From sequence record PQ863253.1: a stretch of 64,000 nt of DNA; one strand, 5' to 3'. This DNA is from Escherichia phage Ptacy1496. How positions within the stretch are numbered: the stretch's first letter is position 1; every line of letters begins with the position of its first letter. The notes below the pieces were generated by a model. It did not search any database. It worked only from the letters and a program-made list of their open reading frames with translations, and was not told the origin of the DNA. Made by a program: the position numbers and the translations under genes. Positions 2,448 to 43,961 of this stretch are shown piece by piece.

Positions 2448-4264
2448 TACTGGCTCATCCATTCTTTACGAAGGTCAGCATTATCTCCCATGAGCATTTC
2501 AAAAAGCTCTTTCCAGTTCTCAGGAAGTTTAACAACATCATATACTGGATTTTGAATCATCTCACGATATTCAGATTTTTCCAAAGAGCCAAGTCCTTTA
2601 ATATAACGGATGCTATGTTTAGGTAGAGCATCTTTAGCACTCTCATATTCAGCGACTGTATAAAACCATTCTTGTTTTTTACCAATCTGTGCGATGATTA
2701 CAGGAGTTTTGACAAAGCGAATTCGTCCTTGCTCAAACAGTTCTGGCCAATTACTAAAAAATCCAAGCAGAGAAGGATAAATGCTTCCTAGACCATCATG
2801 GTCAGCATCAGTCATAATAGCAATATTATGATAATTCAAGTTTTCAGCTTTTTCACCGAGAACTAATCCAGTGATTGCGCAAATATCAAACAGTTCTTTG
2901 TTTTTAAGCATGTCAGCATATGACATACCCCAACTGTTGAGAACTTTACCACGTAATGGATAACCACCGTGAAGTTCTTTATCACGAACATCAATAAGAT
3001 ATCCGATAGCCGAATCACCCTCAGTCAAGAAAAGAGTAGTATCAGCATCTTTACCACAAAGATTCGCTTTAATATGTTTATGAACCTTAGCTTTAGAAGC
3101 CTTTTTAGCTGCTTTAGTTTCTGCTGCTTTTTCTGCCGCTAATTTACGAGCCAAAGCAGCTTCAATAATCGGCATTAGAATTGCTTCATTATTTAGAATA
3201 GCACGTGAAATCTTTTTAGCATCAAGTTGAATATGACTACGGATTTCACCAAATGGAGAAGTCAAACGCTCTTTAGTTTGAGAATCAAATCGCATGTTTT
3301 TCATATCACGGACAAACATAACGATAGTCAAACATTCTTTAACGCGTGCTTTAGTCACATCAATTTTGAACTTACGTTTGATTTGTGGAATAAGGTCTTC
3401 ACAAATATCATCCATAACACAGTCAATGTGATGGCCACCATTCTTAGTGTGAATGTTATTCACATAAGTTAATTGACGAAAACCATCCGGTGAACGACCA
3501 ACCGCAATAGAGCAATTTTCTTGTTCTTGAACGATAGCATGCTCATCATATTGGCGTGCATATTTCTTAAAATTGCCCTGAACCTTTTTACCATTAAAGG
3601 TAAATTGAATATCAGGATAAACTACTGCAAGTGTCTGGAGACGATCTAGTGTAATGTCAAGATAAACTTGGGACAGCTCATTAGTTTCAAATGACATAAA
3701 ATCAGGAATGAAAGTAACGCGAGTTCCTTTCCATTTTCCTGGAATAGTTTCCCATGATTTATTTTCCATGCCATTTGAACAACGAACTACAATATTATTT
3801 TGACCATCACCAGTTTCACCGACAAACATCACAGAAAAAATGTTTGTCAAACTAGAACCAACACCATTCATACCACCGGTGACGCGTTCTTTATCATCAC
3901 CGAAGTTACCACCTGCTTTTGGAATAGTCCAGGCAGCAACAGGACCAGGAATTTCTTCACCAGTAGGTGTTTTGACCATCGCTTGTGGAATACCGCGACC
4001 GTTATCTTCAACTGTTACTTGATTGTTTTTAATAGTAATATTAATTTTATTTGCGAATTTAAACTTAGTACGAATACCTTCATCTACTGAGTTATCGATA
4101 ATTTCATCAATAAGCTTAACAAGACCAGGTACATACTGAACACTTTCCCATTTACCAAACAGAAAGCGCTCATGCATTTCATTAGCAGAAGAGCCAATAT
4201 ACATGCCGCTACGCTTTTTGATATGTTCAATATCGCTCAGAATTTTAATTTCATTCTTAATCAT
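2447..4264 (-). CDS. 39: DNA topoisomerase II large subunit, contiguous (gp39 plus gp60-equivalent C-terminus)
   Basis: 605 aa from ATG; GHKL ATPase and Toprim motifs; C-terminus matches recalled T4 gp60 sequence without interruption. Confidence 0.9.
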   Translation of the reverse strand: MIKNEIKILSDIEHIKKRSGMYIGSSANEMHERFLFGKWESVQYVPGLVKLIDEIIDNSVDEGIRTKFKFANKINITIKNNQVTVEDNGRGIPQAMVKTPTGEEIPGPVAAWTIPKAGGNFGDDKERVTGGMNGVGSSLTNIFSVMFVGETGDGQNNIVVRCSNGMENKSWETIPGKWKGTRVTFIPDFMSFETNELSQVYLDITLDRLQTLAVVYPDIQFTFNGKKVQGNFKKYARQYDEHAIVQEQENCSIAVGRSPDGFRQLTYVNNIHTKNGGHHIDCVMDDICEDLIPQIKRKFKIDVTKARVKECLTIVMFVRDMKNMRFDSQTKERLTSPFGEIRSHIQLDAKKISRAILNNEAILMPIIEAALARKLAAEKAAETKAAKKASKAKVHKHIKANLCGKDADTTLFLTEGDSAIGYLIDVRDKELHGGYPLRGKVLNSWGMSYADMLKNKELFDICAITGLVLGEKAENLNYHNIAIMTDADHDGLGSIYPSLLGFFSNWPELFEQGRIRFVKTPVIIAQIGKKQEWFYTVAEYESAKDALPKHSIRYIKGLGSLEKSEYREMIQNPVYDVVKLPENWKELFEMLMGDNADLRKEWMSQ

Positions 4265-15508: not shown

Positions 15509-15699
15509 TTTGAATGCTCTATAATTAATTTTAAAGCTTCTTCACTGACAAAAATTTCGTCAGGACCTTCTATAACTTCAACCATACGAAGTTGATTAGT
15601 TAAGAGCTCACACACGAGCTCTTTGTTATAATCTTTAAATAGCTGGTCAATACGTTTCTTATGGGCTTTCTTAAGCTGACGCTTATTTAAACGAGCCAT
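15505..15699 (-). CDS. hypothetical protein (soc.2 position)
   Basis: 64 aa ORF. Confidence 0.4.
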   Translation of the reverse strand: MARLNKRQLKKAHKKRIDQLFKDYNKELVCELLTNQLRMVEVIEGPDEIFVSEEALKLIIEHSK

Positions 15700-16214
15700 T
15701 AATAACCTCGGTCTTGACGAGCGAAGTTTTCAGCATTTTTCAGATAATAAAGTTTAAAGATTTCTTCAGCCGACATTCCAAGAGCAATAAATTTATTCAT
15801 GAAAAAGTGAAATTGGTCAATCAGTTCAAATTTAATTTCAAGCTGATCTTCGGGAGATAAGTCTTGAATTTTCTTGGATTGCATTTCAGAATAACGTTTC
15901 TTCCAAGGTTTCCATACAGCAGAAGCTTCTTTTTCGCCATTACTCATACCGCCAAGAGAAGTATATAACTCGCGGGTTTCATCTGCGATATAATCGTCTT
16001 GGTTTCGCAACCAAGCAAGAACTTCTCCTGCAGTTTCAAGTGAATCAGGATGACGATTTGTTTCTGGTTTATCATTAGCCAAACGAATCTGTAAATGCCG
16101 CTGCATGTCAAGCATAACCTGCAGTGGGTCAATATTGTGCATAATATTCTCAGCATATGCACGATTTGCTTTATCAACACCTTCGATCAAATGAGCACAT
16201 TCATTAAAGTGAGC
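15699..16214 (-). CDS. 56: dCTP pyrophosphatase gp56 (MazG-like)
   Basis: 171 aa from MAHFNECAHLIEG...; T4 gp56 is 171 aa at this position. Confidence 0.8.
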   Translation of the reverse strand, partial: AHFNECAHLIEGVDKANRAYAENIMHNIDPLQVMLDMQRHLQIRLANDKPETNRHPDSLETAGEVLAWLRNQDDYIADETRELYTSLGGMSNGEKEASAVWKPWKKRYSEMQSKKIQDLSPEDQLEIKFELIDQFHFFMNKFIALGMSAEEIFKLYYLKNAENFARQDRGY

Positions 16215-16277
16215 CATTATTTTTCCTTTCAATTCATTAATAAGTTAAATAATTATATCATTTGAATATGTAAGCAA

Positions 16278-17617
<1,340 letters not shown>

Positions 17618-19458: not shown

Positions 19459-19505
19459 ATTAACCTTTATTCATAAAAGCATTAAAAATTTGATCGTCAA
19501 TAGAA
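19457..19505. repeat. 49-bp direct repeat, copy 2 (3' end of 61.2-position gene)
   Basis: CATATTAACCTTTATTCATAAAAGCATTAAAAATTTGATCGTCAATAGA. Confidence 0.85.
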
Positions 19506-20092
19506 ACTTTTACTTTAGGCTGTTCTTCAAACGGTAATTCATATCCACATATTACAATTTTGTGATCGATACCAAAATACACAGAAGCAATATTATTAAT
19601 ATTATTTTCAGTGAAATCTAAATCAACATCAATATCTTTTTGACTAGCGCTCAAAGGATAATTAATACGAATAATTCGATTATCTTTAACAAAGATTCCA
19701 CCGACATACTCTGTGCTGCGTTTAAAGTTTACACGTTTCCTAAATGAAAAATATTCAGGTTCTTTATGGGCTCGACTCATAGGGCTTAAAGTGTATTCCG
19801 AATATGAAATATCAAATCCTACACCTTCAATATGAGCCAAAGTATCATGATTAAACCAATTATAATCGTATGCCAAATCCATTAAATTGTAATATGTGAA
19901 AGGCACCGGATTAACATCATATGTTGTACCTTTAAAATCTGCCCAGGCAACGATTTCGTTATCTTTAACAATTACAAAAATTGTGCCAATAAGATATCCA
20001 CGGTTATTTTCATCAGGTGTTATATTATAACATTGTGCATCAGGAAATTTACCGTATTTAAACGGTGGATTTTTGTGCATATAATAAATCAT
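19460..20092 (-). CDS. hypothetical protein (61.2 position; T4 61.2 is the anti-DarT factor AdfA)
   Basis: 210 aa ORF; assignment positional, sequence identity to AdfA not verified. Confidence 0.45.
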   Translation of the reverse strand: MIYYMHKNPPFKYGKFPDAQCYNITPDENNRGYLIGTIFVIVKDNEIVAWADFKGTTYDVNPVPFTYYNLMDLAYDYNWFNHDTLAHIEGVGFDISYSEYTLSPMSRAHKEPEYFSFRKRVNFKRSTEYVGGIFVKDNRIIRINYPLSASQKDIDVDLDFTENNINNIASVYFGIDHKIVICGYELPFEEQPKVKVSIDDQIFNAFMNKG

Positions 20093-22384: not shown

Positions 22385-22747
22385 TTAAAAGAATTTAAAT
22401 TTTTTCTTTGACCTTTTATTAAATGCATCTTGCAGTTGCATTGTAATACATTTTTCTACATGAGGAGCTAACTCAGCTTTTCTTTCTTGGTCAAGAACAG
22501 CAAAGTCCATTACGACTTTTCCATCAACCCAATCTAATTTTGTCACATACACAATGTGTGTAGAACCGTCTTCTAGTTTAATGACAATCTCCTGGATAAC
22601 ATTTTCCATGGCAGATTTAATTATCTTAAGAGATTCATTAAAAAGACGTTCTTTTCTTTCTTCTTCCCCCTCCGAAGAGGGGGATTCATCGATAATTTCT
22701 AGATCTAAGTCTAAATCATCTTTATTCATTAAATTCTTCCATATCAC
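22385..22747 (-). CDS. hypothetical protein (gene 40 position)
   Basis: 120 aa ORF between uvsX and 41. Confidence 0.5.
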   Translation of the reverse strand: MIWKNLMNKDDLDLDLEIIDESPSSEGEEERKERLFNESLKIIKSAMENVIQEIVIKLEDGSTHIVYVTKLDWVDGKVVMDFAVLDQERKAELAPHVEKCITMQLQDAFNKRSKKKFKFF

Positions 22748-23903
22748 TTAACTGATCTAGGTCAGTTTCTAAATCAGCTGCTGATTTACTTTTACTTTCT
22801 GGAGATTTAAATTTTTCAACCTTTGAGTTAATCAATTCATCAACTTCAGCTTCAACAATTTCATTACTATCAATAGCACCTAACTGATAAGCACGTTTAA
22901 TAGCATCTCGGAATGGTTGATGCTTAAATAAAGGACCCCAGAATGTAGTGCAATTGGTATCTTTTGCACGCCAAGATTTTTCTTCGCGAATCATCTCGCC
23001 GGTTTCTTCATCAAGAAATTCACGAGCATACCAGCCATTTTTAGGTTTTACTACAAATCCTAATTCTAGAGCCATATCTAACAATCCAGAATAAGGATCG
23101 ATACCACCGTCAAATTTAACATCAATAAAGAATTTACTTTTTTCTTTAACGGTACGAGATTTTTCTACATTTAGAACAAATTGATACCCTTGAAGATCAG
23201 AACCATCTTTAATCTGACGCTTACCGATAATGAATACGGTATCAGCCGAATACATTACGCCTGTACCACCTGTCATCACGGTTTTACTAAACATTTCAAT
23301 TGTTTCAATTGTATGGTTAACCGCAACACATGGAATATTTTTAATGCTAAAGTAAGGAGTAACAATACGGAATAATGACTTCAGTGATTTAGCACGAGTC
23401 ATATCTGCCACAGATTTTTCATTCAAGGCATCTTCCGTTTCTTTCTTAGAAGCCATATTACCAATTGAGTCGATGAATACTATAACCTTTTCACCACGCT
23501 CAATAGCTTCAAGCTGATTCACCATATCAATTTTCAGCTGTTCAACTGATTGAATTGGCGTATGAATTACACGTTCCGGGTCAACTCCCATGGATCGCAA
23601 ATAAGCTGGAGTAATACCAAATTCGCTATCATAGAATAGACAAACTGCGTCAGGATATTTGTTCAAATATGCCGCAACCATAGTCAAAGACATATTTGAT
23701 TTAAAGTGTTTAGAAGGCCCTGCGAAAATAGTTAAACCAGACTGCATACCGCCATCAATCGCACCAGAAATAGCAATATTAAGCATTGGGATTTTTGTAC
23801 GGATTACATCCTTTTCATTAAAGAATTTAGATGTAGTCAGTTCAGCAGTCATTTTAGAAGTGGAAGCTTTAATCAAACGGGATTTTAAATCTGCAATAGA
23901 CAT
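22722..23903 (-). CDS. uvsX: UvsX recombinase (RecA-like)
   Basis: 393 aa; N-terminus and P-loop region match recalled T4 UvsX. Confidence 0.95.
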   Translation of the reverse strand: MSIADLKSRLIKASTSKMTAELTTSKFFNEKDVIRTKIPMLNIAISGAIDGGMQSGLTIFAGPSKHFKSNMSLTMVAAYLNKYPDAVCLFYDSEFGITPAYLRSMGVDPERVIHTPIQSVEQLKIDMVNQLEAIERGEKVIVFIDSIGNMASKKETEDALNEKSVADMTRAKSLKSLFRIVTPYFSIKNIPCVAVNHTIETIEMFSKTVMTGGTGVMYSADTVFIIGKRQIKDGSDLQGYQFVLNVEKSRTVKEKSKFFIDVKFDGGIDPYSGLLDMALELGFVVKPKNGWYAREFLDEETGEMIREEKSWRAKDTNCTTFWGPLFKHQPFRDAIKRAYQLGAIDSNEIVEAEVDELINSKVEKFKSPESKSKSAADLETDLDQLSDMEEFNE

Positions 23904-23956
23904 TCATTTTTTCCATAGGCATCATTATATTTTCCTCACTGGTTAAAGATAGAGTA

Positions 23957-23982
23957 ATTATAACACAATAAATTTAGGCATT
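23957..23982 (-). promoter_or_regulatory. candidate middle promoter (imperfect MotA box AATGCCTAA, 11 nt, TATAAT)
   Basis: about 55 nt upstream of uvsX ATG. Confidence 0.3.
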
Positions 23983-24829
23983 AATCAACTGCTATTGGAT
24001 GAATAGCATTAAACTTATGAAATGCTTCTGATTTTTCTTTACGAGAAACACACATGCGAAGAACCTTTAATGGCTCGTCTTCTTCACCCAACGATTTTCG
24101 TTTTTCAATATTAGAAGTTTTCCAACGAGCTTGCTCTGGAAACTCTCTATTGATTTGCTCAAGCGCTCTATTATGTTTAGAATTACTACGAATTGAACTG
24201 CACCCGCCAGGAGCTTGTGCTTTTCCAGATACAACCAGATATTTGAACAAGGCCAAATGCGGATAACCTTGATTAATTAAATTGAGAAATGCATACATAT
24301 CTTCGCATAAATCAATTTTTCCATACCCAATTTGTTCTGTCGTAAGTTTTCCGAGATCATACCATGTATTCGTGAATCCATATGAATTTTCACGATAATT
24401 ACCCCAAGATGAAGTAATTTTAAAAATAGGTAGACGAGCATGGCCATGATAATACCCACAATCCATGGCATCCTCAACATATTGAATCAATTCATAGAAC
24501 TGTTCACGAGTCAATTGATTGACTTTATCCACACAACGACGATCATCTCTTTTTCGCATTGAACTCATACGAATAGTAGTATCATCGTCAATCATCCAGA
24601 TTCGTTGACCTGCATACATATCAGTAATTGCTTTACGAGTACCAGCAATTCCATTTACATCATCAGGAATAGTTATAATTTTAGCTCTAGACCCATAGGC
24701 ATCATAATAAGCTTTTTCTTCGTGTTCACGCACTACAATATGGGGTTCATAATCAGTCGGAAACATATCAAGGGCAGAAACTGCCCCAACACGCTGATAA
24801 CTTGGAATTACGAATTGAATCATTTCCAC
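23981..24829 (-). CDS. GT-A-fold glycosyltransferase at the beta-gt locus (likely DNA hmC-glucose modifying)
   Basis: 282 aa; VIPSYQR and MIDDD (DxD) motifs; sits between uvsX and gene 42 where T4 has 351-aa beta-gt. Confidence 0.55.
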   Translation of the reverse strand: MEMIQFVIPSYQRVGAVSALDMFPTDYEPHIVVREHEEKAYYDAYGSRAKIITIPDDVNGIAGTRKAITDMYAGQRIWMIDDDTTIRMSSMRKRDDRRCVDKVNQLTREQFYELIQYVEDAMDCGYYHGHARLPIFKITSSWGNYRENSYGFTNTWYDLGKLTTEQIGYGKIDLCEDMYAFLNLINQGYPHLALFKYLVVSGKAQAPGGCSSIRSNSKHNRALEQINREFPEQARWKTSNIEKRKSLGEEDEPLKVLRMCVSRKEKSEAFHKFNAIHPIAVD

Positions 24830-25560
24830 TCACCGTTATAATCTTTTTTCACAATATGAGTTTCGCCAGTATTCCACCAATGATCAACCAAGTAAAAATG
24901 ACGAGAATATACATGAAGACTTCCAACATTCCATATAATAGAACCTGCTTTATACTGACGAGTTGAATCGCCTGCATTCAAATCAGATACTAATTTATCT
25001 AATACGTATTTTTGCCATGCATAATCATTACGGAATCCGAAGACCACGTCATTTGAGCGCATGTTAACAACCGCATTGATTTTCTTGTCACGAATCAGAT
25101 ACTGTACGGTATTCGTACACATGAAATCTGACATGCCATCTTTATTGTAGTCAAATTGCATGGATGGACGAGTATAAATCATGATACCACGTCGAGAATC
25201 AGGATTTTGACCAAGTTCAGCTAAACACATATCATATTGAGCATAGTTATCTTCTGACCAGATAGCCCAACCATAATTCGAGTTAATTTCACCTTTAGAA
25301 GATGCTACTTGTTGCCAAATCTTCGGTGTTTCACCCGGAATATCTTTAACGAACAAGCTCTTAGATTTATACCATTCAAGTTCACGCTGAATGTATTCAT
25401 CATTAAGAGCGCCAAAAATAAACGGTTCATCTGCTATAAATGATGCGCCAATAATTTCAATAGTTTTAACGCCAGTTTTATCAACTACGAAATCTTTTTC
25501 TTTTAATGCAAGCCCCAAATGAAGACGGATTTCTTCAACTGTCATAGAGTCACTAATCAT
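24820..25560 (-). CDS. 42: dCMP hydroxymethylase gp42
   Basis: 246 aa; thymidylate-synthase-like; matches recalled T4 gp42. Confidence 0.9.
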   Translation of the reverse strand: MISDSMTVEEIRLHLGLALKEKDFVVDKTGVKTIEIIGASFIADEPFIFGALNDEYIQRELEWYKSKSLFVKDIPGETPKIWQQVASSKGEINSNYGWAIWSEDNYAQYDMCLAELGQNPDSRRGIMIYTRPSMQFDYNKDGMSDFMCTNTVQYLIRDKKINAVVNMRSNDVVFGFRNDYAWQKYVLDKLVSDLNAGDSTRQYKAGSIIWNVGSLHVYSRHFYLVDHWWNTGETHIVKKDYNGEWK

Positions 25561-36417: not shown

Positions 36418-36435
36418 AAGGGCCGAAGCCCTTTA
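36418..36435 (-). terminator. hairpin AAAGGGC-uucg-GCCCUUU
   Basis: palindrome overlapping alpha-gt stop region. Confidence 0.5.
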
Positions 36436-37635
36436 TTTTGTAATAATGTCAAACTGTTCTTTAAAGCAGAAGCTTGAATCTTGATGCTGATACAAAAATT
36501 CATATGCTTTTTCTCGCTCACGGTCATAAAGAGCTCGGTCAGATGACAGTTCTTTAATACGTTCAAACGTTGATTCCATATCATTTTCATCAAACCAAAC
36601 GATACCGCTATCATGCGAAATTAGCGGAGTATTATCAACACGGAATTTTAAATTTTCGCCAGTAGATTTCCAAAATACCGGAATTGTTCCACATGCACCA
36701 AGCTCGAGATGAGTATATTCTAAAGAACGTTGTAGATATTTTTTATCCAACTTACTCAACTGATAACCAAATCCGGATTTACTCATACGTTCAAGCATTT
36801 CGCTATTTACATAACGGTCAAGAATTTGCGTTGGCAAATTAGGAGCAATTTTAATTTGGTCTACTTGATGAAGACGATAATACTCGTATGGAATTCCTTT
36901 TTCTTTAATAGGAATGAACGCTGGAGAACGTTCCAGACCTTCCATAACAGTACTTAGTCCTGCAGGTTTAAGATGTTTTTCATGAAAATCAAACATCTGA
37001 TAAAAACCTTTCCATGTAGTCGTACGACCAATCCAACGGTTGACATTCATGTTAATTTCAGAAACATCTTTCCAGTAGGTTGATCGAACTTTCGCAATAT
37101 CCATAGGAGGCTGAAAGTTATATACGGTCGGTGCTTCTTCAATATCATCAAACAGAGAAACTGTTTCTGGATACCATTCTTTCATCAGAACTTTATTAAA
37201 ATCGCCATTATCAGAATGACTAAAAATAACATCAGCTCGACGAACAGTTTCTTCTAATCCCAAATTTCGACGCAAAGAAAGAGAAGAATGGTCATGTTGA
37301 TAAACTACAACACGAACCGAAGGTTTAATGTTATCAATAATTTTTTTATAGTTATTAATAGTATCTTCTTCAACTGAAGTAGCAGGAACTGAATTGATAA
37401 TTAGAATATCACAATCATTTACCAGCTTAAGTGTTTTATCGTATTCTTTTGCCAATAAAACCGGAATTGAAAATGATTTATAATCATGTGCACAGTTACG
37501 AGTAAATGATTTATCTTTAGCATAAACCAAAGTTACTTCATGACCATTTTTAATAAACCAATCACGTTGCTCAAGAGAAAATTTAGTTACACCGCAACCT
37601 TCAAGACCTCGAGCCATAAAAATACATACTTTCAT
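36433..37635 (-). CDS. agt: DNA alpha-glucosyltransferase
   Basis: 400 aa; sequence closely matches recalled T4 alpha-gt. Confidence 0.9.
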   Translation of the reverse strand: MKVCIFMARGLEGCGVTKFSLEQRDWFIKNGHEVTLVYAKDKSFTRNCAHDYKSFSIPVLLAKEYDKTLKLVNDCDILIINSVPATSVEEDTINNYKKIIDNIKPSVRVVVYQHDHSSLSLRRNLGLEETVRRADVIFSHSDNGDFNKVLMKEWYPETVSLFDDIEEAPTVYNFQPPMDIAKVRSTYWKDVSEINMNVNRWIGRTTTWKGFYQMFDFHEKHLKPAGLSTVMEGLERSPAFIPIKEKGIPYEYYRLHQVDQIKIAPNLPTQILDRYVNSEMLERMSKSGFGYQLSKLDKKYLQRSLEYTHLELGACGTIPVFWKSTGENLKFRVDNTPLISHDSGIVWFDENDMESTFERIKELSSDRALYDREREKAYEFLYQHQDSSFCFKEQFDIITK

Positions 37636-37686
37636 TTAATATCCTCTTTGTTTTGGTTTATTTTACCAAAAATTTATAAAGCAATA

Positions 37687-37703
37687 TAGGAGCCGAAGCT
37701 CCT
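37687..37703 (-). terminator. hairpin UAGGAGC-uucg-GCUCCUA
   Basis: palindrome upstream of alpha-gt. Confidence 0.45.
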
Positions 37704-37875
37704 ATCCACATAATACGCCATACAGAGGCTCGTTAGAACTTTTAAATTTTATGCGCTTATATTTTATAGTTCCTTCTGCTTTAGCTTTATCATGAGACTC
37801 TTTAAAGCGTCTCATCATTTCCTCTTTAGAGGAACGAATTTTATTATAATCTATTTCAGAAGTCTGGGTGTTCAT
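37702..37875 (-). CDS. small hypothetical protein (57 aa, not in ORF track)
   Basis: hand translation MNTQTSEIDYNKIRSSKEEMMRRFKESHDK... Confidence 0.3.
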   Translation of the reverse strand: MNTQTSEIDYNKIRSSKEEMMRRFKESHDKAKAEGTIKYKRIKFKSSNEPLYGVLCG

Positions 37876-37878
37876 CTT

Positions 37879-38085
37879 TCACAGTTGCCACCATTTTTTG
37901 ACTTGATAGGAATCAACCCACACTTTCATATTAGGGTCTGCTCTTACAATAGGAGGATTAACTTCTTTAATTGAACTATCATGGTATTCTTTTTCAGAAA
38001 TTTTCACACAAAGATGACCATTCAAAGATTCAGTAAATCCTGCATTAATTTTAAGACGCTTGAATTTTACGTGTGTAAGCATCAA
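37879..38085 (-). CDS. hypothetical protein
   Basis: 68 aa ORF. Confidence 0.4.
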   Translation of the reverse strand: MMLTHVKFKRLKINAGFTESLNGHLCVKISEKEYHDSSIKEVNPPIVRADPNMKVWVDSYQVKKWWQL

Positions 38086-38368
38086 TCATATCCTCAATTT
38101 GCGATCTAGTAGTCTTCCAAAGAATACTGATGAGTTCATCGTTATATGGCTGTTTTAGAATATCCCGACTTTTCTTGATAGCATATTCGTATTGAGCAAA
38201 ATTATTATTTTCAGCTGCAATCTGAGCGTGCTTATAAAGACGATTCAGTTCGCGTTTGTTTTTAGACAATAACTTATTTGCTTTTCTTTCTGCTTCAAGA
38301 CGGTTCTTTTCTTCAATAGAAGAAATAAGCTTTTCCACTTCATCATTAATTTCGGGTTTATCAGTCAT
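38051..38368 (-). CDS. hypothetical protein
   Basis: 105 aa ORF. Confidence 0.45.
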   Translation of the reverse strand: MTDKPEINDEVEKLISSIEEKNRLEAERKANKLLSKNKRELNRLYKHAQIAAENNNFAQYEYAIKKSRDILKQPYNDELISILWKTTRSQIEDMIDAYTRKIQAS

Positions 38369-38369
38369 A

Positions 38370-38588
38370 TTATTTCTCTAATATAAAATAAAAATCATCA
38401 TCTGTTAAATGATACCTATAATTTAATTCTACACCATTAGATTTAAAAGCGGTATCATACGGATTTTCTGGATCAATATCAATGTCAAGAGCTAAAACTT
38501 CCCTGAGATACATTTTAAGTAAATAGGGAATAGCTTCAACTTCAGGTATTTCTTCCAAGAATCCGGAGAGGTTAATCGTTAGCCTCAT
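38370..38588 (-). CDS. hypothetical protein
   Basis: 72 aa ORF. Confidence 0.4.
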
Positions 38589-41676: not shown

Positions 41677-42147
41677 TTAATCATGTGTCCACACCCCATC
41701 GGTATTTGACCAAAGTCGCTGATTATCTGATCCTCGCCACAGCTTTTTAGTCGGAAGATTTTTCTCATACTTCCCATCAATAATAACATCAACATATTTA
41801 AGCATTTCTAGTTGTTTAATATCTTCAAACTTATATCCTGTCCACAACCAAATGCTTTTACTGGGATAAAGATTTTTTACCGTTTGAACAATGCAATGAA
41901 TAACATCTCGGTTATCAGGATAGAGAGGGTCACCTCCGGTTATAGTCAATCCTTCTATATAATCATTATTCAAACATTCAATTAATTGCTCTAGTGTCTC
42001 TCCAGTGAATGGAATACCATTTCTAGCATTCCATGTTGATTTATTATAACACCCTTCGCATTTATGCAAACAACCTGTAACGAAAAGAACGACCCTGCAA
42101 CCAGGGCCATTCACAAAATCGCAAGGATAAAATCTATCATAATTCAT
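41677..42147 (-). CDS. nrdG: anaerobic ribonucleotide reductase activating protein NrdG (radical SAM)
   Basis: 156 aa; CxxxCxxC cluster motif GCLHKCEGC. Confidence 0.9.
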   Translation of the reverse strand: MNYDRFYPCDFVNGPGCRVVLFVTGCLHKCEGCYNKSTWNARNGIPFTGETLEQLIECLNNDYIEGLTITGGDPLYPDNRDVIHCIVQTVKNLYPSKSIWLWTGYKFEDIKQLEMLKYVDVIIDGKYEKNLPTKKLWRGSDNQRLWSNTDGVWTHD

Positions 42148-43961
42148 TGGTGTTTAACCCTATGCATGATTTCTTTATTTTTACCGAGATTAAATCCGCG
42201 TTCGTTCGGATTTCCCAAATAACCACATGTTCTTCTTATTGTGTTCATCTTTTTAGGATCAGTTTCTCCACAAATAGAACAAACAAATCCGTTTTCAGTA
42301 GGAGTCATTTCATGGGTACTTCCACATGTAAAACATTTATCCACTGGCATATTAACACCAAAATAATCTAAATGTTGTGCGGCATAATCCCATACAGCCT
42401 CAAGACCTTTTAAGTTATTTTTCATATCAGGAAGTTCAACATAAGAAATGTGACCACCTGTCGCAATGAAATGATATGGCGCTTCACGAGAAATCTTTTC
42501 AAACGGAGTAATATTTTCTTCTACTGAAACATGGAAACTGTTAGTGTACCATCCTTTATCGGTAACATCTTTTACACTTCCATATTTTTCTGTATCAAGT
42601 TTACAGAAGCGATAACAAAGGTTTTCAGCAGGAGTCGAATACAAACTAAAAGCAAACCCAGTTCTTTCAGCCCACTGTTTAAGACGAGCATTCATTTTAG
42701 TTAAAATTTCTTGTCCAATGTCACGACCGACAAGAATATTCAATTCATGAATACCAATGTATCCTAAAGACACTGAACTTCTACCGTTTTTAAATAACTC
42801 AATTATGTCGTCATCAGGTTTAAGACGAACCCCGAATGCACCTTCTTGGTAAAGAATAGGAGCAACAGTCGCTTTAACTCCTTTTAAGGAACTAATTCTA
42901 CACATCAAAGCTTCAAAACACAAATCCATTCGTTCATTGAACAATTCAACAAATTTCTGTTCATTGAATTGTGTTCCAATATAAGAATCTAACGCGATAC
43001 GAGGAAGATTCAGTGTTACAACACCGAGATTATTACGTCCATCAAGAATTTCATTGCCAGTCGAATCTTTCCATACGCCCAAGAAACTACGACAACCCAT
43101 TGGAGAAACAGGAATAGATGAGCCGGTGATAGCTTTATTGTTCTTAGCTGAAATAATATCAGGATACATTCTTTTGCTTGCGCACTCTAGAGCAAGCTGT
43201 TTAATATCATAGTTCGGATCGTCTTTATAAAGATTAACACCTTCTTCAACAAACATAACAAGCTTAGGGAAAATAGGAGTTATCCCATCACGACCAAGAC
43301 CTTTAATACGATTTTTCAGAATTGCTTTCTGAATCATTCGTTCAGTCCAGTCAGTTCCCGTACCAAATGTAATTGTTACAAAAGGCGTTTGTCCGTTTGA
43401 ACTAAAGAGAGTATTTACTTCATATTCATAAGCTTGGAATGCATCGTATACATCTTTTTCTGTTTTAGATTGAGCATAATTTAACGCATCAGCGATTTGC
43501 CATTTTTCTGCATCCTCAATATGTTTTGCATAGGTGCGTTTAACATAAGGAGAAAGTACTTTATCTACATTAGCAAAAGTCGTTCCGCCATATTGATGGG
43601 AAGCAACTTGCGCAGTAATTTGTGCCATAATTGCAGTAGCAACGCCAATTGATTTAGGAGTTTCAATCTGTGCATTACCAAGCTTAAATCCGTTCTCAAG
43701 CATTCCTTTTAAATCTACTAAACAGCAATTAGTAAATGGAAGAGCAGGGGAATAATCAATATCATGGAAATGAATAATTCCGCTTTCATGCGCTTTCATA
43801 ATAAAAGACGGGACCATATTTTTGGCAATGTGTTTAGACACAATACCAGCCATAAGGTCCCGTTGAGTTGGAAAAACACGAGAATCTTTATTAGCATTCT
43901 CGTTTAAAAGGTCTTTATTAGTTTTATGAATCAATCCTTCAATTTCTTTTTCAATTGTCAT
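42144..43961 (-). CDS. nrdD: anaerobic ribonucleoside-triphosphate reductase NrdD, uninterrupted
   Basis: 605 aa continuous ORF; C-terminal glycyl radical motif RRTCGYLG; no intron. Confidence 0.95.
   Translation of the reverse strand: MTIEKEIEGLIHKTNKDLLNENANKDSRVFPTQRDLMAGIVSKHIAKNMVPSFIMKAHESGIIHFHDIDYSPALPFTNCCLVDLKGMLENGFKLGNAQIETPKSIGVATAIMAQITAQVASHQYGGTTFANVDKVLSPYVKRTYAKHIEDAEKWQIADALNYAQSKTEKDVYDAFQAYEYEVNTLFSSNGQTPFVTITFGTGTDWTERMIQKAILKNRIKGLGRDGITPIFPKLVMFVEEGVNLYKDDPNYDIKQLALECASKRMYPDIISAKNNKAITGSSIPVSPMGCRSFLGVWKDSTGNEILDGRNNLGVVTLNLPRIALDSYIGTQFNEQKFVELFNERMDLCFEALMCRISSLKGVKATVAPILYQEGAFGVRLKPDDDIIELFKNGRSSVSLGYIGIHELNILVGRDIGQEILTKMNARLKQWAERTGFAFSLYSTPAENLCYRFCKLDTEKYGSVKDVTDKGWYTNSFHVSVEENITPFEKISREAPYHFIATGGHISYVELPDMKNNLKGLEAVWDYAAQHLDYFGVNMPVDKCFTCGSTHEMTPTENGFVCSICGETDPKKMNTIRRTCGYLGNPNERGFNLGKNKEIMHRVKHQ

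Follow-up and report, generated by a model that had tools for sequence, protein, structure and literature searches.

The open reading frame at positions 23981..24823 (minus strand) of the window, by which we mean the whole 64,000-nucleotide stretch of Escherichia phage Ptacy1496 DNA analysed here, almost certainly encodes a T2/T6-type beta-glucosyl-HMC-alpha-glucosyltransferase, an enzyme of 280 aa also named ba-gt, ggt or TAGT. It belongs to the TAGT family (PF20691) and is predicted to be of GT-A type. A sequence-only reading of this DNA had proposed a second DNA glucosyltransferase of the T2/T6 kind, and the identity to the T2 and T6 proteins, the PF20691 match and the synteny all support that proposal, and nothing observed speaks directly against it.

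The protein has a single Pfam match, to PF20691 ("TET-associated glycosyltransferase", TAGT), which scores 38.9 bits against a gathering cutoff of 27.5 (E=1.2e-9) and covers profile positions 2-205 of 205. It also matches PHROG 842, 'beta-glucosyl-HMC-alpha-glucosyltransferase', at E=2e-89. Alignment with the T2 and T6 enzymes, suggested at the outset as a check, gave 99% identity to both: 278 of 280 residues agree with T2 (98.9% by tblastn), where R11H and P251S are found, and 277 of 280 with T6. The protein of phage vB_Eco_Solly (Solly) is identical over all 280 residues, that of RB3 differs at one, and that of BGP carries seven substitutions relative to the window protein. The opposite outcome, an alignment to the T4 beta-glucosyltransferase (b-gt, 351 aa), was not seen, BLASTP giving no similarity (best E=2.2 over 8 residues), and PF09198, the T4 b-gt family, found no match in the window protein. 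Searching the PDB by sequence returned chance matches alone (E>1), there being no solved structure for the family, and NCBIfam holds no model for ba-gt or for the alpha-glucosyltransferase (a-gt, alpha-gt) described below. When 1.84 billion representative proteins were searched with a profile, 2144 clusters of the ba-gt family came out at E<=1e-3, of which 737 reached E<=1e-10.

Gene position, conserved residues and predicted fold

A minus-strand frame runs without interruption over 23981..24829 and comprises 282 codons when counted from a GTG at 24829, which had led to the description of a 282-aa protein between uvsX and gene 42. The frame and its location hold, while the length probably does not. 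Two codons downstream of the GTG is an ATG (24823-24821) that shares the tetranucleotide ATGA with the stop codon of gene 42 (TGA, 24822-24820); the 843-nt, 280-aa form is the one annotated in six relatives (RB3, T2, RB32, BGP, Solly and Some), and distant homologues begin M-IQFVIPSY. For these reasons the GTG was dropped as a start, and a 280-aa product initiated at ATG 24823 is most likely. The gene is probably translationally coupled to gene 42, and the two would be expressed together by way of the ATGA overlap.

Downstream, the uvsX recombinase gene (22722..23903, minus strand; PF21134 T4_UVSX_C, E=5e-39, plus RecA) fixes the synteny of ba-gt, and directly upstream lies an intact gene 42, encoding dCMP hydroxymethylase (24820..25560, minus strand; Pfam Thymidylat_synt, E=4e-16), whose syntenic counterpart is annotated with this function in RB3, T2, T6 and T4. 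The order uvsX, ba-gt, 42 is common to the window, T2, T6 and RB3. The T4 syntenic site does carry the 351-aa b-gt, as had been stated, together with the homing endonuclease gene segA, and mobB is found beside T4 a-gt. Both of these mobile elements are missing from the window, with no segA at 23904-23980 and no mobB by a-gt (37636-38570). The window's nrdD (42144-43961) is an uninterrupted 605-aa frame, and an Rfam scan of the whole 64-kb window at gathering thresholds found no group I intron and no other family. Around ba-gt neither promoter-like sites (14, against 12.2±3.7 in shuffled sequence) nor terminator-like sites (2, against 1.2) are enriched, and the hairpin-like GGGGCAGTTTCTGCCCT at 24787-24771 is internal to the ba-gt coding sequence and no more than expected by chance.

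The two motifs that had first pointed to a GT-A enzyme were both found, VIPSYQR at residues 5-11 of the 280-aa protein and DxD, in the form DDD, at residues 79-81. Conservation was assessed in an alignment of the 152 best family matches and the window protein, 153 representatives in all. D80, D175 and G207 are present in 100% of these, G206, G186, R11 and D79 in 99%, R212 in 98% and D81 in 95%, and the window protein has every family-invariant residue, including R11, D79-D81, D175, G186, G206-G207 and R212.

An AlphaFold2 model was built from a 10-sequence alignment (mean pLDDT 69.7, pTM 0.72), with pLDDT of 85-95 over residues 1-80 and below 50 at 126-151 and 203-211. In the model a strand at 3-7 is followed by IPSY, helices and strands then alternate, and a strand at 74-77 is followed by DDD; the modelled N-terminal half is the nucleotide-binding beta-alpha-beta/DxD layout of GT-A enzymes. 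Comparison of the model with the PDB by Foldseek returned GT-A enzymes (K4CP, PcManGT, TarS, TarP, WrtF, DPMS, ABO transferases and GpgS) and related sugar-nucleotidyltransferases, with zero GT-B enzymes among the matches, which are weak (best E=1.7e-3, with ~93-130 residues aligned for most). Taken together, the PF20691 match above cutoff, the modelled N-terminal layout and the top PDB folds, GT-A or nucleotidyltransferase, argue for membership of the GT-A fold, the type proposed in the sequence-only reading. The enzyme would be an inverting, metal-dependent GT-A glycosyltransferase near family GT2, in which DDD (79-81) is expected to bind the divalent metal together with the pyrophosphate of UDP, and E174-D175 is the putative base region.

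The hydroxymethylcytosine pathway and the expected sugar pattern

As had been noted, alpha-gt is retained, and it is intact. A 400-aa frame at 36433..37635 (minus strand) matches PF11440 at E=2.4e-236 over profile positions 1-355 of 355 and represents the DNA alpha-glucosyltransferase, a GT-B enzyme; its product differs from those of Solly and Some at 4 residues, from that of T2 at 6 (394/400 identical) and from those of T4, T6 and BGP at 35-36. A gene 56 dCTPase/dUTPase homologue lies at 15699..16232 (minus strand), with a weak dUTPase_2 match that falls just under the cutoff (E=2.8e-4). Its syntenic counterpart in BGP and Some is a dCTP pyrophosphatase gene annotated at 519 nt, and the maximal frame probably extends upstream of the true start. 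In the pathway we propose, the gene 56 homologue would exclude dCTP so that the DNA carries hydroxymethylcytosine (hmC). Gene 42 would make hm-dCMP, the polymerase would put hmC into DNA, and alpha-gt would add an alpha-glucose. Finally, with UDP-glucose as donor, ba-gt would attach another glucose to this alpha-glucose by a beta-1,6 linkage, giving gentiobiosyl-hmC. This last transfer, to alpha-glucosyl-hmC DNA in the window phage, is supported by analogy with its relatives.

A dam methyltransferase gene (16278-17057, minus strand; PF02086, E=6.5e-51) overlaps by 1 nt a 186-aa frame at 17057-17617 (minus strand), which falls in PHROG 8706, of unknown function, and is the same gene as BGP_065. 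Its comparison with the DpnII (GATC) restriction endonuclease family PF04556 gave E=0.004 and 16.9 bits, below the cutoff of 23, and together with dam the frame may be what is left of a GATC restriction-modification pair, or a variant form of one, carried by a T-even phage. The gene 61.2 homologue (19460-20092, minus strand) encodes a full-length AdfA anti-DarT factor (PF23813, E=1e-138), AdfA being a known counter-defence gene.

Published chemistry of related phages bears directly on the sugar pattern to be expected. T2 DNA contains 70% alpha-glucosyl-hmC, 5% gentiobiosyl-hmC and ~25% bare hmC, and T6 DNA contains 3%, 72% and ~25% of these, respectively (PMC11078745). Deletion of ba-gt from T6 removes the second glucose and leaves alpha-glucosyl-hmC alone; Brig1 can then degrade the DNA in vitro, and the sensitivity of the phage to Brig1 rises in vivo (PMC11078745). 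The BapA hydrolase releases glucose from the DNA of T6 delta-g-gt, not from wild-type T6 DNA (PMC13160076). Ten Tequatroviruses with alpha-GT and TAGT and without beta-GT have alpha-gentiobiosyl-mdC and no beta-glc-mdC (PMC13390438). The same study reports hmC, alpha-glc and gentiobiosyl forms at ~1:2:2 in EL, BGP and Geo, i.e. ~40% gentiobiosyl, and ~1/3 hmC, ~2/3 gentiobiosyl and a trace of alpha-glc in Solly (measured by LC/MS), Some and five others (PMC13390438).

The T2/T6-like gentiobiosyl-hmC pattern foreseen in the sequence-only reading has been measured in phages whose enzyme is identical (Solly) or near-identical (Some) to the one described here (PMC13390438), and by analogy the same may be expected of the window phage. 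Its ba-gt matches that of Solly throughout, and 4 residues separate its a-gt from the Solly and Some proteins, so the pattern most likely resembles that of T6 or Solly rather than that of T2. The virion DNA is predicted to carry mostly gentiobiosyl-hmC with about 1/4 to 1/3 bare hmC and no beta-glucosyl-hmC.

The exact sugar ratio is also a prediction, because the window is a mosaic of Solly-type glucosyltransferase alleles and the dam and restriction-enzyme-like genes of the BGP group, a pair listed as particular to the phages with the 1:2:2 ratio (PMC13390438). It is conceivable, then, that ba-gt acts here at a low or intermediate level, leaving the DNA T2-like (mostly mono-alpha with a few % gentiobiosyl) or BGP-like at ~1:2:2. 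Besides the presence of that gene pair, this would fit the variation in gentiobiosyl content among carriers of the gene (5% in T2, ~40% in BGP, EL and Geo, ~2/3 in T6, Solly and Some) and the T2-type a-gt allele of the window, which is 6 aa from that of T2. We nevertheless consider it unlikely, given that the window ba-gt is Solly's, without the R11H and P251S of T2 and without the seven substitutions of BGP, and that the a-gt proteins of Solly and Some, 4 aa from its own, come from phages with ~2/3 gentiobiosyl and only a trace of alpha-glc.

Far less probable is an enzyme that does the work of T4 beta-gt, placing a single beta-glucose straight onto bare hmC. The shared genomic slot, and the label 'beta-glucosyltransferase' or 'b-gt' in some database records, would be in keeping with such an activity, but the protein has no sequence similarity to T4 b-gt and is of a different fold class, phages with the same or nearly the same gene and without a T4-type b-gt have no beta-glc-mdC and leave ~1/3 of their hmC bare, and it is the second glucose alone that is lost in T6 delta-ba-gt. 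Glycosylation of some non-DNA target, for instance a protein or a sugar of the host envelope, can for practical purposes be set aside even though the GT2 enzymes closest in structure make polysaccharides and teichoic acids, since DNA glucosylation is altered when enzymes with 99% identity to this protein are deleted, its gene sits within the hmC pathway cluster and is probably coupled to gene 42, and PF20691 is defined by association with DNA base-modification genes.

Which host defences recognise the phage DNA depends on the sugar pattern of its hmC. Gentiobiosyl-hmC resists removal of glucose by BapA and, in vitro, excision by Brig1; McrBC-type and Brig3-type systems can attack the hmC that is left bare, and GmrSD and BrxU cleave every tested form of hmC. 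For a ba-gt that adds the second glucose, as we favour, the combined alpha-gt and ba-gt content provides a usable prediction of the phage's sensitivity to these defences. This is a gain at the level of annotation only. Earlier publications already cover the enzyme and its fold class, where it occurs, its synteny with T4 b-gt and the nucleoside composition, the GT-A fold and the synteny both dating from 2026.

Alleles of T2 and T6

The T2 phenotype of 5% gentiobiosyl-hmC is 60 years old. The sole differences between the T2 ba-gt (MH751506 ggt, extracted locus 1507-2349) and the window and Solly protein are R11H and P251S. Of the 153 family representatives 151 have R11, the remaining two being alignment gaps, and P251 is conserved among close relatives only. 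The 66-nt stretch with the H11 codon has an exact match in just eight records, all of them T2 or the T2-size phage SV76; RB32 and EC.W14-2 keep R11, though they share neighbouring synonymous changes with T2. The a-gt of T2 is 2 aa from that of Solly. As R11H hits a near-invariant residue and the a-gt proteins are so similar, yet the gentiobiosyl content is ~5% in T2 and ~2/3 in Solly, this comparison suggests a hypomorphic ba-gt in T2, a defect that would account for the classic difference between T2 and T6. Such a defect is not stated in the literature we searched, a search that did not reach the 1993 cloning paper. The more general proposal, that the ba-gt allele and not alpha-gt sets the ratio of mono- to di-glucosyl forms in T-even phages, with the 5% of T2 arising from R11H with or without P251S, is a tentative one to which we give slightly less than an even chance. 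If it is true, the window carries a fully active allele.

The alpha-gt allele was also considered as the setter of the sugar ratio and was ruled out: T6 and BGP have a common allele, as do T2 and Solly, and the ratios within each pair disagree. Two alpha-gt alleles, ~91% identical, are distinguished, one in T2, Solly, Some and the window and the other in T4, T6 and BGP. Since these alleles track neither the mono/di-glucosyl ratio nor the ba-gt variants, the glucosylation genes appear to have been reassorted by recombination among Tequatroviruses.

One T6 record (MH550421 ggt, extracted locus 3138-3980) has TAG at codon 10 of ba-gt and is annotated with a shortened 261-aa product without IPSYxR. 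In a set of 440 records no other has this codon; the second T6 record (AP018814/NC_054907), like all the rest, has CAG. The TAG reflects either a mutation of that particular stock or an error in sequencing. If the amber codon is real, that T6 stock would be expected to be without gentiobiosyl-hmC on a non-suppressor host.

Distribution and comparison with known glucosyltransferases

Overall the window is Tequatrovirus DNA, ~97-98% identical to many coliphages and matching no record in the collection exactly. Megablast with the ba-gt locus matched 594 phage records, of which 456 reach 80% coverage or more. Identity is 95-99% for most, and many carry the annotation beta-glucosyl-HMC-alpha-glucosyltransferase. 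By tblastn a near-full-length homologue was found in 684 phage records, 472 at >=90% identity, ~200 at 60-80% (phages of Klebsiella, Enterobacter and Salmonella) and a few lower. T4-type b-gt at >=90% identity is limited to ~29 records (T4, T4T, RB55 and a few others), against the 472 for ba-gt, and alpha-GT and beta-GT are combined in only 6 of 753 GT-encoding phage genomes (PMC13216743). Alpha-gt with ba-gt is the common state in Tequatrovirus, and the alpha and beta pair of T4 is a rare exception. The sequence-only reading had this protein replacing T4 beta-gt; a different enzyme does occupy the same slot, and the word 'replaces', which takes T4 as the reference, is not apt for what is the usual arrangement.

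A different pairing is seen in CC31, STP4-a, Merlin and CF1 (Karamvirus, Gelderlandvirus and Moonvirus-type phages), where a TAGT homologue directly adjoins a homologue of T4 beta-gt, an arrangement noted previously (PMC13216743). In this pair the TAGT is ~65% identical to the window ba-gt and the beta-gt ~49% identical to T4 b-gt. The partner of a TAGT can thus be an alpha-GT or a beta-GT, and one may ask whether the TAGTs of these phages extend a beta-glucose.

Compared with the GT2-family GT-A enzymes (K4CP chondroitin polymerase, TarS/TarP and PcManGT), the modelled ba-gt has the same N-terminal nucleotide-binding domain ending in DxD. Those enzymes are inverting, which is consistent with ba-gt making a beta-glucoside from UDP-alpha-glucose. 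The resemblance amounts to 12-17% identity over ~93-130 residues with weak Foldseek E-values, the C-terminal half of ba-gt is without a confident model, and its acceptor, unlike theirs, would be a sugar on DNA.

With T4 b-gt (GT-B, PF09198), ba-gt has in common its genomic slot, the use of UDP-glucose, phage hmC DNA as the substrate and the formation of a beta linkage. The two are unrelated in sequence, ba-gt is predicted to be GT-A and not GT-B, and T4 b-gt acts on bare hmC, whereas the acceptor of ba-gt would be alpha-glucosyl-hmC. T4 b-gt also comes with segA, which the window is without.

The T2 and T6 enzymes differ from the window protein in few positions. T2 has H11 and S251, where the window keeps P251 and the family-invariant R11; the T6 record MH550421 has N40, G55 and H106 and the amber codon 10, where the window has Y40, D55 and R106 and no amber. 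Shared with T2 and T6 are the 280-aa length, the slot between uvsX and gene 42, the ATGA overlap through which the gene is probably coupled, and the partners alpha-gt and gp42.
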